This document shows, one piece after another, positions 1-34,981 of a stretch of 37,513 nt of DNA. Both the position numbers and the translations under genes were made by a program. Origin of the DNA: a virus (taxonomy: Duplodnaviria > Heunggongvirae > Uroviricota > Caudoviricetes); IMG/VR virus record IMGVR_UViG_2724679239_000004. The stretch is one strand, 5' to 3'. A model generated the notes under the pieces. The model was given only the letters and a program-made list of their open reading frames with translations. It had not been told where the DNA came from and did not search any database. Within the stretch, counting starts at the first letter, position 1. Each line of letters starts with the position of its first letter.

Positions 1-747
1 TTATTCTTGAGAGATACATGGTTCCCCCTTGCTGAGCCACGGCCCCTGATTGACGGTGCGTTCCCCAAACAGCCACTGCTGACGATTTAGAGGAACATCC
101 CGGCGGCGTACTATTTTGCTCGCGACCAGGCCATCGTGCTCCCCTTCCCACCAGCATTCATCCTGAAGTTTCGGGAGTGAGACGTTCAGTTTGCGGAAAT
201 GATTCTGATATTGTTGGTATGCGTTACGTAAAACATCAGACACGTTACCTTCGAGCAGTAATGGCGCAAGTGGTAATGCCAGCGGATGACTTTTTCGCCC
301 CAGATAAAGCGGAAAAACCGGATGACGTAAACCTTCCTGCAACTGTTCGAGGCTGTAAGGCGCATCGGTAGTTTTTGCCACAGCAATCATCCACCAGGCA
401 TCGGTGTGGTAGTCGCGCCGGGAGATAATCGCGCTCAGAAGATCAGGGTCGCTCAACTCCTCGCGACGGCTGAAATAACGCGCTTTACGCACCTCTTTTG
501 GCATCTGGACCGTGTGATAATCCCGTGCCCAGCGCGGGTTACGGCTGGCGCAAACCACCAGTGAATAGTGGCGGTTAAACGCGTTTAATCGTTCGGTATC
601 ATCACGTCGAATTCCAACCCCGGCAGCCAGCAGCCCCAGCAATGCTGAGCGCGAAGGCAGTTCATGGGTATGACGTACTTCGCCGGGGGCATCAACGCCC
701 CATGATGCCATCGGCCCGTGAAGCTGAAAAATCAGATATTGGCTCAT
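1..747 (-). CDS. casD: Cas5e (CasD)-like subunit of type I-E Cascade; host gene
   Basis: 248-aa ORF with motifs recalled from Cas5e: N-terminal YLIxQLxGPMxSWG, RSALLGLLAAGVGIRRDDT, RDYHTV, YLGRKSHPL. SD-like AAGGGG about 9 nt upstream of the ATG at 745-747. Confidence 0.6.
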   Translation of the reverse strand: MSQYLIFQLHGPMASWGVDAPGEVRHTHELPSRSALLGLLAAGVGIRRDDTERLNAFNRHYSLVVCASRNPRWARDYHTVQMPKEVRKARYFSRREELSDPDLLSAIISRRDYHTDAWWMIAVAKTTDAPYSLEQLQEGLRHPVFPLYLGRKSHPLALPLAPLLLEGNVSDVLRNAYQQYQNHFRKLNVSLPKLQDECWWEGEHDGLVASKIVRRRDVPLNRQQWLFGERTVNQGPWLSKGEPCISQE

Positions 748-843
748 AAGCCGCCCCTTACGCGCAGATAAAGTCCAGCACGTCCTTCATGCTTCCCTGT
801 TTATTCATCACATCAAAACTTGCGCATTCGGTCTTCTGTTCGT
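748..843 (-). pseudogene. possible 3' remnant of the upstream host ORF (candidate cas7e/casC) cut by the phage left end
   Basis: The minus-strand frame is open from the phage junction (843) to a TAA 15 bp upstream of the casD start (translation ...EQKTECASFDVMNKQGSMKDVLDFICA*). Only 27 codons, so chance is not excluded. Confidence 0.3.
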
Positions 844-848
844 TGTAT

Positions 849-870
849 TGATTCACTTGAAGTACGAAAA
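849..870 (+). repeat. transposase end-binding site, L1-like (22 bp)
   Basis: TGATTCACTTGAAGTACGAAAA, 6 bp from the terminus as for Mu L1. Confidence 0.6.
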
Positions 871-993: not shown

Positions 994-1015
994 TGATTCA
1001 TTAAAGACACGAAAA
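994..1015 (+). repeat. transposase end-binding site, L3-like
   Basis: TGATTCATTAAAGACACGAAAA, near-copy of L1 about 150 bp from the end. Confidence 0.55.
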
Positions 1016-1182: not shown

Positions 1183-1707
1183 TTATACAGCTTTCTTTAC
1201 ATCGTTTTCTCTTACAGGGAAATTATGTTCTTTGCCTTCATACTGAGACAAAATCTCTCTTACTTTTTCCGGTGGTAATGCCTGAAGAGTTTGCAGGGTT
1301 TTCTGTTGCTCCACAGTAATCCCTAATGCCTCTAATGCCTTATCTTTACTGACAATTGTAGGCATAAGTCCTTTAATCCCTGCTACACGAATGATCTCCA
1401 CAGCTGCGGCCTGCTCATCTGGTGTTAAGAAGCTCATTGCATAAATTAGCCTCTCATCAACTGTATGGGCGATTGATGTATGCACTGGTTTATCAGAAAG
1501 TGAGGCACCTTTAATGGCCCTGCGTGTTTCTTCTGGCAGACTGTTGATGTGATACTCATAAGCGACACCTTTCCCACCATGACGCTGACGTTTTACCCAA
1601 TCTTCCGCCACAGCTTTCCTGGTAATGTTAGTCGCCAACTTTGGTACACCAGGCATCCCTTCCAGCTCTTTCGCATTAAACCATTCTTTGATTTCAAAAG
1701 ACATCAT
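1183..1707 (-). CDS. c: phage repressor c (D108-type)
   Basis: 174-aa leftward ORF at the left end. Its N-terminus ([22 protein letters not shown]) is homologous to the N-terminus of the transposase ORF ([22 protein letters not shown]), as expected for Mu-family repressors. Confidence 0.85.
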   Translation of the reverse strand: MMSFEIKEWFNAKELEGMPGVPKLATNITRKAVAEDWVKRQRHGGKGVAYEYHINSLPEETRRAIKGASLSDKPVHTSIAHTVDERLIYAMSFLTPDEQAAAVEIIRVAGIKGLMPTIVSKDKALEALGITVEQQKTLQTLQALPPEKVREILSQYEGKEHNFPVRENDVKKAV

Positions 1708-1892: not shown

Positions 1893-2114
1893 ATGCATAT
1901 GAATAAAAGAACTAACCGCCAAGATTGGCACAGAGCTGACATCGTTGCAGAGCTACGAAAACGCAATATGTCACTAGCTGAATTGGGAAGATCTAATCAT
2001 CTTTCGTCTTCAACATTAAAAAATGCTTTGGATAAGAGATATCCAAAAGCGGAGAAAATCATTGCAGATGCACTGGGAATGACACCGCAAGATATTTGGC
2101 CGTCTCGATACTAG
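1893..2114 (+). CDS. ner: Ner-like DNA-binding regulator
   Basis: 73-aa ORF with [13 protein letters not shown]...[10 protein letters not shown]...IWPSRY, the Ner/Nlp family signature; first gene of the rightward early operon. Confidence 0.85.
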
Positions 2115-2121
2115 GTGCGCT

Positions 2122-4110
2122 ATGAAAGAATGGTATACAGCAAAAGAGTTGCTCGGTTTGGCAGGTTTACCAAAGCAAGCCACTAACATTACACGTAAGG
2201 CACAAAGAGAAGGCTGGGAGTTCAGGCAGGTTGCAGGGACTAAAGGTGTATCATTTGAATTCAATATCAAATCATTCCCTGTCGCATTACGTGCTGAAAT
2301 TCTGTTGCAACAAGGGAGAATTGAAACAAGTCAGGGGTATTTTGAAATCGCCCGCCCCACGCTGGAAGCCCATGATTATGATCGTGAGGCACTGTGGAGC
2401 AAATGGGATAACGCCAGCGATTCCCAGCGCAGACTTGCTGAAAAATGGTTGCCTGCGGTTCAGACTGCAGACGAAATGCTGAACCAGGGGATTTCAACAA
2501 AAACGGCTTTTGCGACCGTTGCAGGGCATTACCAGGTCAGCGCATCTACTTTGCGGGACAAGTATTACCAGGTACAGAAGTTTGCGAAGCCTGACTGGGC
2601 GGCTGCGCTTGTTGATGGACGTGGTGCATCCCGTCGCAACGTTCATAAAAGTGAATTTGACGAGGATGCCTGGCAGTTTCTGATTGCAGATTATCTGCGA
2701 CCGGAAAAACCCGCCTTCCGCAAATGTTATGAGCGTCTGGAACTGGCAGCCCGCGAGCATGGCTGGAGTATTCCCTCCCGTGCCACGGCCTTTCGCCGGA
2801 TTCAGCAACTGGACGAGGCAATGGTTGTTGCCTGCCGTGAAGGTGAACATGCACTGATGCATCTGATACCGGCACAACAACGAACTGTGGAACACCTGGA
2901 CGCCATGCAGTGGATCAACGGCGACGGTTATCTGCATAACGTCTTTGTACGCTGGTTTAACGGTGATGTGATCCGCCCGAAAACATGGTTCTGGCAGGAT
3001 GTGAAAACCCGAAAAATTCTGGGCTGGCGCTGCGATGTGAGCGAGAACATTGATTCAATTCGCCTCTCGTTCATGGATGTTGTGACTCGCTACGGTATCC
3101 CGGAGGATTTTCACATCACCATTGATAACACCCGTGGTGCTGCGAATAAATGGCTGACGGGAGGCGCGCCCAATCGCTACCGCTTTAAGGTGAAAGAAGA
3201 CGATCCAAAGGGGTTGTTTTTACTGATGGGTGCGAAAATGCACTGGACAAGCGTTGTTGCCGGTAAAGGCTGGGGCCAGGCAAAACCTGTTGAACGTGCT
3301 TTCGGTGTTGGTGGGCTTGAGGAATACGTTGATAAGCATCCGGCACTGGCTGGCGCATATACGGGGCCAAATCCGCAGGCAAAACCTGATAACTATGGCG
3401 ACCGCGCTGTTGATGCAGAGCTGTTTCTGAAAACCCTTGCCGAAGGTGTGGCGATGTTCAATGCCAGAACAGGCCGTGAAACAGAAATGTGCGGGGGCAA
3501 ACTCTCGTTTGATGATGTTTTCGAGCGTGAATACGCCAGAACGATTGTGCGTAAGCCAACCGAAGAACAAAAACGGATGTTGTTACTGCCTGCCGAGGCG
3601 GTGAACGTTTCACGCAAAGGCGAGTTTACGCTTAAAGTTGGCGGCTCCCTTAAAGGCGCGAAAAACGTTTATTACAACATGGCATTAATGAATGCCGGCG
3701 TGAAAAAAGTTGTGGTCAGGTTTGATCCACAGCAGCTACACAGCACGGTTTATTGCTACACCCTGGACGGTCGGTTTATCTGTGAAGCGGAATGTCTGGC
3801 ACCAGTTGCATTTAATGATGCTGCGGCAGGCCGTGAGTATCGTCGACGCCAGAAACAACTGAAATCTGCAACTAAAGCAGCCATTAAGGCGCAGAAACAA
3901 ATGGACGCGCTGGAAGTTGCTGAACTGCTGCCGCAGATAGCCGAACCAGCAGCACCAGAATCAAGGGTTGTTGGTATTTTCCGGCCTTCCGGTAACACGG
4001 TGCAGGTGAAATACCAGGAAACCGATGATGAATATGAAACTGATCGTGATGAATATCTGAATCACTCGCTGGATATTCTGGAACAGAACAGACGTAAAAA
4101 AGCCATTTAA
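2122..4110 (+). CDS. A: DDE transposase MuA
   Basis: 662 aa. From [21 protein letters not shown] onward it matches recalled MuA closely, including the C-terminal ...[13 protein letters not shown]; the N-terminal roughly 70 aa are divergent (D108-like). SD AGGTG precedes the ATG. Confidence 0.95.
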
Positions 4111-4147: not shown

Positions 4148-5086
4148 ATGAATATTTCTGATATTCGCGCAGGACTGCGCACGCTTGTAGAAAGCGAAAA
4201 AACAACTTATGCGCAAATCGCCCGCGAATCTGGAGTTGCCGCAGGAACGTTAAGCGCGTTCGTGAATAACAAGTACAACGGCGATAATGAGCGTGTTGCG
4301 CAGACGCTGGAACGCTGGCTGGAGAACTATCACCGCGCCGCAGAACTGCCAGAACCCCCTCGATTTGTGGAAACCAGAACAGCACGTCAAATCTGGACGA
4401 GTATGCGCTTTGCCAGCCTGACTGAAAGTATTTCCGTTATCTGCGGTAATCCAGGTGTGGGAAAAACTGAAGCAGCCCGCGAATTTCGTCGCACCAATAA
4501 CAATGTCTGGATGATCACCATTACCCCATCCTGCGCCAGTGTTCTGGAATGCCTGACTGAACTGGCTTATGAACTGGGAATGAATGACGCACCGCGTCGT
4601 AAAGGGCCACTCTCCCGCGCTTTGAGACGCCGTCTCGAAGGTACACAGGGGCTGGTCATTATCGACGAAGCTGATCATCTTGGCGCAGAAGTTCTGGAAG
4701 AACTCCGCCTGTTACAGGAATCCGCCCGTATTGGTCTTGTTCTGATGGGGAATCACCGCGTTTATTCAAATATGACCGGCGGAAACAGAACGGTTGAATT
4801 TGCCCGCCTGTTTTCCCGTATTGCAAAACGGACGGCAATCAATAAAACCAAAATTGATGATGTAAAGGCCATTGCGGATGCCTGGCAAATTACCGGCGAA
4901 AACGAGCGGGAATTATTACAGCAGATTGCGCAAAAGCCAGGTGCACTTCGTATCCTGAACCACTCGCTGCGCCTTGCTGCCATGACGGCCCACGGCAAAG
5001 GTGAACGTGTTAATGAAGATTATCTGCGTCAGGCTTTCCGTGAATTAGACCTGGATGTTGATATTTCAACCCTGCTGCGTACGTAA
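4148..5086 (+). CDS. B: MuB target-DNA activator ATPase
   Basis: 312 aa, Walker A GNPGVGKT and Walker B LVIIDEAD, immediately downstream of A. Confidence 0.9.
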
Positions 5087-18899: not shown

Positions 18900-20000
18900 A
18901 TGAGCAGGCCGGACATGAAAAAACACGCGATTGGTATTGCTGCGCTGGGTGCGCTGTCCATTGACGATGACGGCTGGTGCCAGCTATTGCCTGCCGGTTA
19001 TTTCAGTGCCCGTGACGGTCGCCCGTTTGATGTAACAACCGGTCAGGGCTGGTTCATCGACGGAGAAATTGCCGGACGCCTGATTGAAGGTATCCGCGCA
19101 CTTAACCAGGACGTGCTGATTGATTACGAGCATAACCAGCTGCGTAAGGACAAAGGATTACCCCCGGAACAACTGGTCGCGGCTGGCTGGTTTAACGCCG
19201 ATGAAATGCAGTGGCGTGAAGGTGAAGGGTTATTTATCCACCCACGCTGGACAGCGGCAGCCCAGCAGCGCATCGATGACGGTGAATTTGGTTATCTCTC
19301 TGCGGTTTTTCCGTATGACACCGCCACTGGTGCGGTACTGCAAATCCGCCTTGCTGCGCTGACCAATGATCCCGGTGCCACCGGCATGAAAAAGCTGACC
19401 GCACTGGCGGCAGGCCTTCCCGACATCCTTCAACAGGAGAACAAACCCATGAATGAAACGCTGCGCAAGCTGCTTGCGCGTCTTGGGGTAACTGTCCCCG
19501 AAAATGCAGACATCACTGATGAACAGGCCAGCGCGGCCCTGAGTGCGCTTGATGCACTCGAAACAGATGCCGGAAAAGTGGCGTCGTTATCCGCCGAACT
19601 GGAAAAGGCACAGAAAGCCGCCGTTGACCTGACGAAATACGTCCCGGTGGAAAGCTACAACGCCGTGCTTGATGAACTGGCTCAGGCCACCGCGCAAAGT
19701 GCCACCGCCAGCCTGAGCGCCGTTCTGGACAAGGCGGAACAGGAAGGCCGCATTTTCAAAAGCGAACGTGCCTATCTGGAACAGCTTGGCGGTCAGATTG
19801 GCGTGGCGGCACTGTCGGCACAGCTTGAGAAAAAACAGCCCATCGCTGCGTTATCTGCCATGCAGACCACAACGGTACAAAACCCGTCGCAGGAAAAACC
19901 GGCGGTGGCGGTGCTGTCTGCTGATGAAAAAGCAGCAGTGAAGGCGCTCGGCATTACTGAGGCTGAGTATCTGAAAATGAAACAGGAACAAGAAAAATGA
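18900..20000 (+). CDS. I: head protease/scaffold protein I
   Basis: 366 aa; Ala/Glu-rich coiled-coil C-terminal half typical of scaffolds; immediately upstream of the major head gene. Confidence 0.75.
   Translation: MSRPDMKKHAIGIAALGALSIDDDGWCQLLPAGYFSARDGRPFDVTTGQGWFIDGEIAGRLIEGIRALNQDVLIDYEHNQLRKDKGLPPEQLVAAGWFNADEMQWREGEGLFIHPRWTAAAQQRIDDGEFGYLSAVFPYDTATGAVLQIRLAALTNDPGATGMKKLTALAAGLPDILQQENKPMNETLRKLLARLGVTVPENADITDEQASAALSALDALETDAGKVASLSAELEKAQKAAVDLTKYVPVESYNAVLDELAQATAQSATASLSAVLDKAEQEGRIFKSERAYLEQLGGQIGVAALSAQLEKKQPIAALSAMQTTTVQNPSQEKPAVAVLSADEKAAVKALGITEAEYLKMKQEQEK
19449..20000 (+). CDS. Z: nested in-frame scaffold ORF Z (C-terminal part of I)
   Basis: Internal ATG at 19449 preceded by AGGAG at 9-nt spacing; in Mu, Z is expressed from an internal start within I. 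Confidence 0.4.
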   Translation: MNETLRKLLARLGVTVPENADITDEQASAALSALDALETDAGKVASLSAELEKAQKAAVDLTKYVPVESYNAVLDELAQATAQSATASLSAVLDKAEQEGRIFKSERAYLEQLGGQIGVAALSAQLEKKQPIAALSAMQTTTVQNPSQEKPAVAVLSADEKAAVKALGITEAEYLKMKQEQEK

Positions 20001-32347: not shown

Positions 32348-33890
32348 TGTTTTATATTGATAACGACAGCGGCGTAACCGTCATGCCGCCCGTATCCGCC
32401 CAGCGTAGTGCTATCGTTCGCTGGTTTTCAGAAGGTGACGGGAATAATGTTATCACATGGCCCGGCATGGACTGGTTTAATATTGTGCAGGCGGAGTTAT
32501 TAAACACGCTGGAAGAAGCCGGTATTCAACCGGATAAAACAAAATTAAACCAGCTTGCACTGTCCATTAAAGCCATCATGAACAAGAATGCGCTGCTGAT
32601 AAAAAATAACCTCAGCGAAATTAAAACTGCCGGGGCATCAGCACAGCGTACAGCACGTGAAAATCTGGATATTAATGATGCCAGCCTGAACAAGAAAGGA
32701 CTCGTTCAGCTAACCAGTGCCACTGACAGCCCCAGTGAAACGCTGGCAGCCACCGCAAAAGCGGTGNNNNNNNNNNNNNNNNNNNNNNNNNNNNNNNNNN
32801 NNNNNNNNNNNNNNNNNNNNNNNNNNNNNNNNNNNNNNNNNNNNNNNNNNNNNNNNNNNNNNNNNNNNNNNNNNNNNNNNNNNNNNNNNNNNNNNNNNNN
32901 NNNNNNNNNNNNNNNNNNNNNNNNNNNNNNNNNNNNNNNNNNNNNNNNNNNNNNAACGACTCAATTCTTGCCTGGATTCGAAATACTGACTGGGCAAAAA
33001 TTGGTTTTAAAAATGATGCCGACAGCGATACTGATTCATACATGTGGTTTGAAACAGGCGACAACGGCAATGAATATTTCAAATGGAGAAGCAAACAAAG
33101 CACCACAACAAAAGACCTGATGAATCTTAAATGGGATGCTTTGTATGTTCTTGTCAATGCCATTGTAAATGGCGAAGTCATATCAAAATCAGCAAACGGC
33201 CTACGTATTGCTTATGGTAATTACGGATTCTTTATTCGTAATGATGGTTCAAATACATACTTCATGTTGACAAACTCCGGTGACAACATGGGGACTTATA
33301 ACGGATTAAGGCCATTATGGATTAATAACGCTACTGGCGCTGTTTCGATGGGGCGTGGACTTAATGTTTCAGGGGAGACACTTTCAGACCGTTTTGCTAT
33401 TAACAGCAGTAATGGTATGTGGATTCAGATGCGCGATAACAACGCTATCTTTGGGAAAAATATAGTTAACACTGATAGCGCTCAGGCGTTGCTTCGCCAG
33501 AATCACGCCGACCGAAAGTTCATGATAGGTGGACTGGGGAACAAGCAATTTGGCATCTACATGATTAATAACTCAAGGACAGCCAATGGCACCGATGGTC
33601 AGGCGTACATGGATAATAACGGGAACTGGCTTTGCGGCTCGCAAGTTATTCCCGGCAACTATGGCAATTTTGATTCCAGATATGTGAAAGATGTTCGACT
33701 TGGTTCACAGCAATATTATGGAGTGAACAACTGGCAAACATGGAATTTCCAGTGCCCTTCAGGTCATGTGTTGTCTGGTATTAATGTTCAGGATACAGGT
33801 TCCAACTCTGCCGATAATATAGCTGGCGTTTATTACAGACCAGTTCAAAAGTATATAAATGGCACCTGGTATAATGTAGCGAGCGTTTAA
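32347..33890 (+). CDS. S: tail fibre protein S (constant part plus Sv), interrupted by an N-run
   Basis: Two ORF segments, 32347-32766 and 32955-33890, in different frames across a 188-nt gap (not a multiple of 3); C-terminus ...[12 protein letters not shown] parallels the minus-strand Sv' C-terminus. Confidence 0.7.
32767..32954. other. unresolved sequence (188 N) inside gene S, spanning the expected gixL site
   Basis: Run of n characters; gixR lies about 3.0 kb downstream and no inverted copy of it is visible in resolved sequence. Confidence 0.95.
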
Positions 33891-34447: not shown

Positions 34448-34981
34448 TCATTCTGGTTGTTCGGGAAACGTTACTGGCAAGCTGGAAGTGTCTGTAGATT
34501 CGACTTTCTGCGCAAAGAGCATCCACTCTGTTAATTTTTGTTTATTCTCGTCGGAAATGATGCCCAGCCGTAGCTGTGAGTCCCATAGCTGGGTTTTATC
34601 CCTGACAAGTTGCAACAGGCTTTGCTTTTCATTCTCTGCCTGCTGCCTCTGTTCCTCCTCGGTATAAGTTCGCTTTATCACTACGCCATCTTTGAACATC
34701 CATTTACCCGAAATGTCAGCACGGCGATTTGCAGTAATGTCAGCAACCTCAACAACGCTTAAACCTTCTGGATTTATTGTAGATACGTCTTTATCTATAG
34801 CCACAATAATTCCATCTGATGTGTAAGCAATTTTTATAGTGTCATCCTGGAATTTCTTTTGTTCCTCATACCAGTTTTTATCGTCCTCAGAATACAACCA
34901 GACAACACCGAATTGTCGCGTCAATTCATATTGTTCAACAGTTTTTGGATTTCCGGATCTGATGTTTTTCAAATGCTGCAT
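34448..34981 (-). CDS. U': alternative tail fibre assembly protein U'
   Basis: 177 aa on the minus strand, paralogous to U. Confidence 0.8.
   Translation of the reverse strand: MQHLKNIRSGNPKTVEQYELTRQFGVVWLYSEDDKNWYEEQKKFQDDTIKIAYTSDGIIVAIDKDVSTINPEGLSVVEVADITANRRADISGKWMFKDGVVIKRTYTEEEQRQQAENEKQSLLQLVRDKTQLWDSQLRLGIISDENKQKLTEWMLFAQKVESTDTSSLPVTFPEQPE

Follow-up and report, generated by a model that had tools for sequence, protein, structure and literature searches.

A full-length Mu/D108-type prophage very probably interrupts cas7e of the type I-E CRISPR operon in an isolate of Escherichia albertii

The window, meaning the whole 37,513-nt stretch of DNA that was analysed, opens in a type I-E cas operon and continues from position 844 as a prophage of the Mu/D108 family. 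It is 100% identical to E. albertii scaffold BBWA01000003.1 (GCA_001515005.1, 573,983 bp), on both sides. Two loci from this same scaffold are referred to below: L011, on the casD side, and L025, on the side of the right phage end, which was reached by exact look-up of the 377-aa baseplate protein P. The features at the left junction are as follows.

1 to 747, minus strand: cas5e/casD, complete, 248 aa (TIGR01868 casD_Cas5e, 159 bits; PF09704, 111 bits)
19 to 1 (start codon ATG at 19 to 17), minus strand: first 19 nt of cas6e/casE, overlapping the 3' end of casD, from the gene calls in L011
758 to 843, minus strand: 3' remnant of cas7e/casC, comprising 2 nt, 27 codons (E-QKTECASFDVMNKQGSMKDVLDFICA) and a stop codon at 758 to 760; identical to the end of the 351-aa Cas7e of relatives
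839 to 843, no strand: TTCGT, left copy of a 5-bp target-site duplication; the pentamer is repeated after the phage right end and occurs once at the empty site
844 to 37513 and on to about 37628, plus strand: Mu/D108-family prophage of about 36.8 kb, including a 188-N gap (end-to-end scaffold length 36,785 bp)

The protein encoded at 1 to 747, which a first-pass annotation had taken for Cas5e, scores as such well above the curated TIGR01868 cut-off of 68.95 bits. NCBI lists this exact protein as Cas5/CasD [Escherichia albertii]; it occurs on 26 contigs, and among GTDB representatives the nearest species representative by CasD is E. albertii NBRC 107761 (96%). Exact look-up of CasD led to ten places. 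In nine of these the operon is uninterrupted, in the order cse1-cse2-cas7e-cas5e-cas6e-cas1-cas2 with cas3 upstream; in the tenth, L011, Mu-type genes lie directly upstream of casD. The flanking iap-cysD-cysN region of the lysogen is 90.7% identical to that of E. coli and 98.6-100% identical to that of the nine relatives. Downstream of cas2 there is an array (L011 12683-12963) of five repeats and four spacers, with 29-nt repeats, 32-nt spacers and a 61-nt period. Cas3 is present in the relatives, and the L011 and L025 loci stop short of the cas3 position in the lysogen.

The left phage terminus was originally placed at 844, 96 bp upstream of the casD start codon, and this position is exact: base 844 of the window is base 1 of the phage D108 record, with 98.8% identity over 2157 nt of alignment. 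The end begins TGTATTG... and reads TGTATTGATTCAC... (also written TGTATTGATTCACTTGAAGTACGAAAA), leaving 96 nt (748-843) between the phage and the casD ATG. Within this gap, the minus-strand frame open from 761 to 843 (83 nt, i.e. 27 codons and 2 nt) had been read as the severed 3' end of cas7e, and its 27 codons are indeed the last codons of that gene, identical to the C-terminus of the relatives' protein. Host-part matches among complete E. coli RefSeq genomes end exactly at 843, at no more than 95.4% identity, and the junction is absent from those genomes; an exact scan of GTDB species-representative genomes with 40 nt of the left junction likewise gave no match.

The pentamer abutting the phage, TTCGT, had been offered as evidence of genuine transposition, as it fits the Mu target consensus N-Y-S-R-N, a fit that on its own has a one-in-eight chance. 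Strong evidence for transposition is provided by the second TTCGT at the right junction together with the single TTCGT at the relatives' empty site. The window itself ends inside the phage, at the mom stop codon, and the phage right end lies 115 bp farther on (L025 19046; window-equivalent about 37628). There the sequence reads ...GTGAAACGCTTCA/TTCGT/AGACCGTATTCATG, or in longer form ...CGCGTTTTTCGTGAAACGCTTCA/TTCGT/AGACCGTATTCATGTTTTCGCG..., with TTCGT at L025 19047-19051. The pentamer is followed by the remaining 970 nt of cas7e, as the first-pass annotation had anticipated, and then by cse2 and cse1. The genes past the right end are all on the casD strand and encode Cas7e (Cas_CT1975, 325 aa), Cse2 (179 aa) and Cse1 (520 aa, running off the end of the locus). 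The empty site, found in the nine relatives with identical CasD, reads ...CTGTTCGT/AGACCG... (written otherwise, ...CTTCTGTTCGT/AGACCGTATTCATG or ...GGTCTTCTGTTCGT/AGACCGTATTCATGTTTTCGCG...). TTCGT is single at the empty site in L001 and L002, and cas7e is uninterrupted, at 351 aa, in L003-L010. Exact abutment of the two host flanks in the empty site, with one copy of TTCGT there and two in the lysogen, is the hallmark of a Mu-type transposition event.

This scaffold is a draft in which a run of 188 N breaks the prophage at the edge of the G segment, which raises the question of whether the phage-cas junctions are chimeric and the phage in reality lies outside cas7e. Such an assembly or scaffolding artefact is, however, barely credible. 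Sequence is continuous across each junction, with the gap lying between the two; each phage end coincides precisely with a canonical Mu terminus (TG.../...CA), and both carry the same TTCGT. Moreover, the two host flanks abut perfectly in the nine relatives, and a transposition signature at both ends is not something that a random misjoin would reproduce. Given the gap, the continuity of the two prophage halves rests on scaffolding together with the matching duplication and flanks. Location of a full-length Mu/D108-type transposable phage in cas7e of the type I-E CRISPR operon of this one E. albertii isolate is regarded as very probable. The remaining features of the phage are given here.

854 to 870, plus strand: attL MuA-binding site L1 (CACTTGAAGTACGAAAA), with 0 mismatches to YMYNWRAARYRCGAAAR; annotated at the same place in D108
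999 to 1015, plus strand: second annotated attL MuA-binding site, 1 mismatch to the consensus (D108 annotation 156-172)
1183 to 1707, minus strand: repressor gene c, D108-type, 174 aa, transcribed towards the left end and casD (ORF, PF02316, D108 annotation)
1893 to 2114, plus strand: ner (ORF, D108 annotation)
2122 to 4110, plus strand: MuA transposase, 662 aa (PF02316, PF09039, PF02914 and PF09299 on the same gene in L011)
4148 to 5086, plus strand: MuB target-capture ATPase, 312 aa (PF09077 Phage-MuB_C on the same gene in L011)
32767 to 32954, no strand: 188-N run, a scaffold gap that interrupts tail-fibre gene S (257-aa ORF spanning the Ns) at the edge of the invertible G segment
36788 to 37513, plus strand: mom, 241 aa (PF25680); the window ends at its stop codon

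Over almost its full extent the prophage is collinear with D108 and Mu (about 93% identity, 70-97% coverage), and it resembles these Escherichia phages (genus Muvirus) in its TG...CA termini, MuA sites at both ends, MuA/MuB, c/ner, G segment with gin, com/mom and 5-bp duplication. The G segment, gin, com and mom are all present, with Pfam matches to Resolvase, Zn_ribbon_Com and Mom. In the whole window there are three matches to the MuA consensus against 0.31 expected from shuffles; the one that lies inside the A gene (3648-3664, plus strand, one mismatch) is probably there by chance. Just inside the right end (...GCTTCA) lie three MuA-type sites (L025 18975-19036), two on the minus strand and one on the plus strand. 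Compared with D108, the left-end/immunity region is of D108 type (98.8%), whereas the right end is short as in Mu, with 115 bp after mom, and is without the D108-specific gene 56. The phage is a mosaic of a D108-type left end and a Mu-like right end. It differs from both Mu and D108 in its host, E. albertii, and in its terminal right-end sequence, which is GTGAAACGCTTCA instead of GTGCGCCGCTTCA. The same variant right end is shared by the prophages in L022 and L027, and is evidently competent for transposition.

The phage ORFs are all of the expected length, with the exception of S, which is broken by the assembly gap. This gap is probably an assembly break arising from a mixed G(+)/G(-) population, and comparison with L022 suggests that the true length may be about 17 bp shorter than the 188 Ns imply. 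The same phage, at 99.8-99.99% identity over 14 kb, is present in five other assemblies (L022, L023, L024, L026 and L027), where it adjoins unrelated genes; the L023 copy carries the G segment in inverted orientation, at 100% identity. Occurrence of one phage at five unrelated sites indicates that it is currently circulating and mobile, and that it inserts at many sites. In addition, 199 blocks of the collection contain the exact Mom protein, and ten other lysogens were retrieved by Mom look-up.

The arrangement at the locus very probably results from infection of an E. albertii cell by a phage of the Mu/D108 family, which transposed with the help of MuA and MuB into the 3' part of cas7e (casC), duplicating the 5-bp target TTCGT. 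Such an event would split the operon around about 36.8 kb of phage DNA, with cse1, cse2 and the truncated cas7e to one side and casD, casE, cas1, cas2 and the array to the other. This is the gene order observed, with Cse1, Cse2 and Cas7e (1-325) to the right of the phage (L025) and Cas5e, Cas6e, Cas1 and Cas2 to the left (L011). Cas7e is cut after residue 325 of 351, with the loss of 26 residues. The truncated frame crosses the second TTCGT copy and ends in a TGA made up of the final phage bases, adding no foreign residues (...RENMNTVYE*). The lost tail includes a GS..VLDFICA motif that is conserved across genera of the Enterobacterales, among them Escherichia, Salmonella, Citrobacter and Klebsiella, and can still be recognised in Dickeya. 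A solved 351-aa Cse4 chain of the same Cas7e subfamily (PDB 9uer_E; 619 bits, full-length alignment) could show the place of this tail in Cascade. The remaining genes on the casD side have the same lengths as in relatives, with casE at 216 aa, cas1 at 307 aa and cas2 at 97 aa in L011, and casD likewise.

In E. coli K-12, Cas7 forms the six-subunit backbone of Cascade and Cas6e is needed for crRNA processing; the promoter of the type I-E operon lies upstream of cse1/casA and is under repression by H-NS and activation by LeuO. The first-pass annotation had proposed that the upstream gene is truncated and that casD and everything beyond it are separated from the operon promoter, and both parts hold, as casD, casE, cas1 and cas2 now lie about 36.8 kb away from cse1 and the promoter, across the phage. 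The downstream genes casD-casE-cas1-cas2 would hence be cut off from that promoter. The insertion has probably abolished Cascade assembly, crRNA processing, interference and adaptation, and for interference the loss would follow from truncation of Cas7e combined with detachment of these four genes from their promoter. The CRISPR defence of the strain is very probably disabled. Nevertheless, by analogy with K-12, H-NS may already silence the E. albertii operon, in which case the insertion might change the phenotype little.

Gene c (1707..1183) and casD share a strand, and a terminator/promoter scan of positions 1-2200 gave no terminator-like site or hairpin between the two. The same scan gave one weak promoter-like site (1251..1222, minus strand), a count below chance expectation. 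With c reading towards casD and nothing terminator-like in between, low read-through into casD-casE-cas1-cas2 is possible, and in the lysogen weak transcription from the c promoter might extend this far. Any such read-through would not repair Cas7e.

The window was compared with the lysogen's four spacers and with 82 unique spacers from the nine relatives. None of the four spacers in the cas-adjacent array of the lysogen matches the prophage, the best reaching 19/32, and self-targeting by this array was therefore rejected. Among the 82 spacers of the relatives, three match the phage, at the protospacers below.

19608 to 19639, plus strand: protospacer with AAG PAM (19605-19607), 32/32 to spacer 5 of GCA_027565295.1 (L004)
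34472 to 34506 (match 34472-34503), minus strand: protospacer with AAG PAM, 30/32 to the leader-proximal spacer 1 of GCA_040935765.1 (L003)
33612 to 33643, plus strand: protospacer with ATG PAM, 27/32 to spacer 6 of L009

As these three spacers match the phage next to functional type I-E PAMs, E. albertii arrays do acquire spacers from the Mu-like phage family. Numbered by spacer identity, the array of the lysogen runs 27-55-37-38, that of L004 runs 26-27-28...36-37-38 and that of L005 runs ...54-27-55-38. Spacers 27, 37 and 38 are common to the lysogen and the near-identical strain L004, which, given acquisition at the leader end, requires that the lysogen lineage lost block 28-36. The lysogen array is then a deletion derivative of an ancestral array that held this block, including spacer 30, the perfect anti-phage spacer. 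L005 is also without block 28-36, has a cas operon without the phage insertion and is 100% identical to the lysogen in iap-cysDN. Because L005 lacks the block yet retains an intact cas operon, the simplest order of events is spacer loss followed by phage entry.

These data bear on whether the position in cas7e arose by chance or by selection. The cas operon makes up only about 0.2% of the genome, and sister strains with the same CasD carry anti-phage spacers, one of them perfect and one leader-proximal; the lysogen lineage itself must once have held the perfect one. It could accordingly be supposed that the phage was targeted by CRISPR, that only integrants destroying Cascade survived as lysogens, and that the insertion reflects immune escape. 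If true, knockout of cas genes by near-random transposable phages would be a recurrent and selectable route of escape from immunity. This reading is nevertheless improbable. The cas-adjacent array of the lysogen has no spacer matching the prophage, and the intact operon of L005 implies that spacer loss most simply predates the insertion. The insertion is also a singleton, with the truncated Cas7e allele on one contig only among about 15 billion proteins. Moreover, when lysogens are as many as the 199 Mom blocks indicate, one insertion in a target of 0.2% is expected by chance. The location in cas7e is most likely a chance outcome of near-random target choice by the Mu-type phage, neither targeted nor selected.

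A chance origin of this kind means that the insertion is what near-random Mu insertion would be expected to produce, and knowledge of either system is unchanged by it. The event is real but sporadic. It does offer a clear-cut case from nature in which transposition of a complete temperate phage knocks out a CRISPR-Cas operon, with a loss of function that we infer, in a species whose sister strains carry canonical-PAM spacers against the same phage. In addition, the lysogen and the near-identical strains with intact cas genes, with or without an anti-phage spacer, form a ready strain set, which could show whether type I-E systems of E. albertii act against Mu-like phages and whether lysogenisation ever selects for disruption of cas genes.

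No report was found in the literature of a Mu-type phage in a cas gene, of this E. albertii insertion or of its accession. There are nevertheless related cases. Prophage integration into CRISPR repeats has been described in Streptococcus pyogenes (Varble et al. 2021, as cited in PMC10359306), and, as far as that citation goes, the two cases are alike in that integration of a temperate phage disrupts the CRISPR-Cas locus of the host. In S. pyogenes, as described there, integration is site-specific, into the repeat, and reflects an evolved choice of attB, whereas the event in E. albertii is a Mu-type transposition into cas coding sequence. The E. albertii phage, unlike that of S. pyogenes as cited, gives no sign of site preference, being found at five unrelated sites.

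Smaller mobile elements are also known to interrupt cas genes. Natural IS insertions in cas genes inactivate CRISPR-Cas (Nat Commun 2023, PMC10359306), and in the type I-E locus of Erwinia amylovora IS10 potentially disrupted expression of Cas7 (PMC10359306). The insertion in E. albertii resembles these cases in that a transposable element has entered a type I-E Cascade gene, duplicated its target site and interrupted the operon. It differs from them in that the element is a complete 37-kb temperate phage, and one that is targeted by spacers of sister strains; phage Mu and transposable phages are not mentioned in that paper. Another mobile element lies at the edge of the cas locus in most of the relatives, which carry a gene for a 370-aa IS transposase (DDE_Tnp_1) between a hok/gef-like gene and cas3 (about 2350-3820 in L003-L010); this gene is absent in L002.
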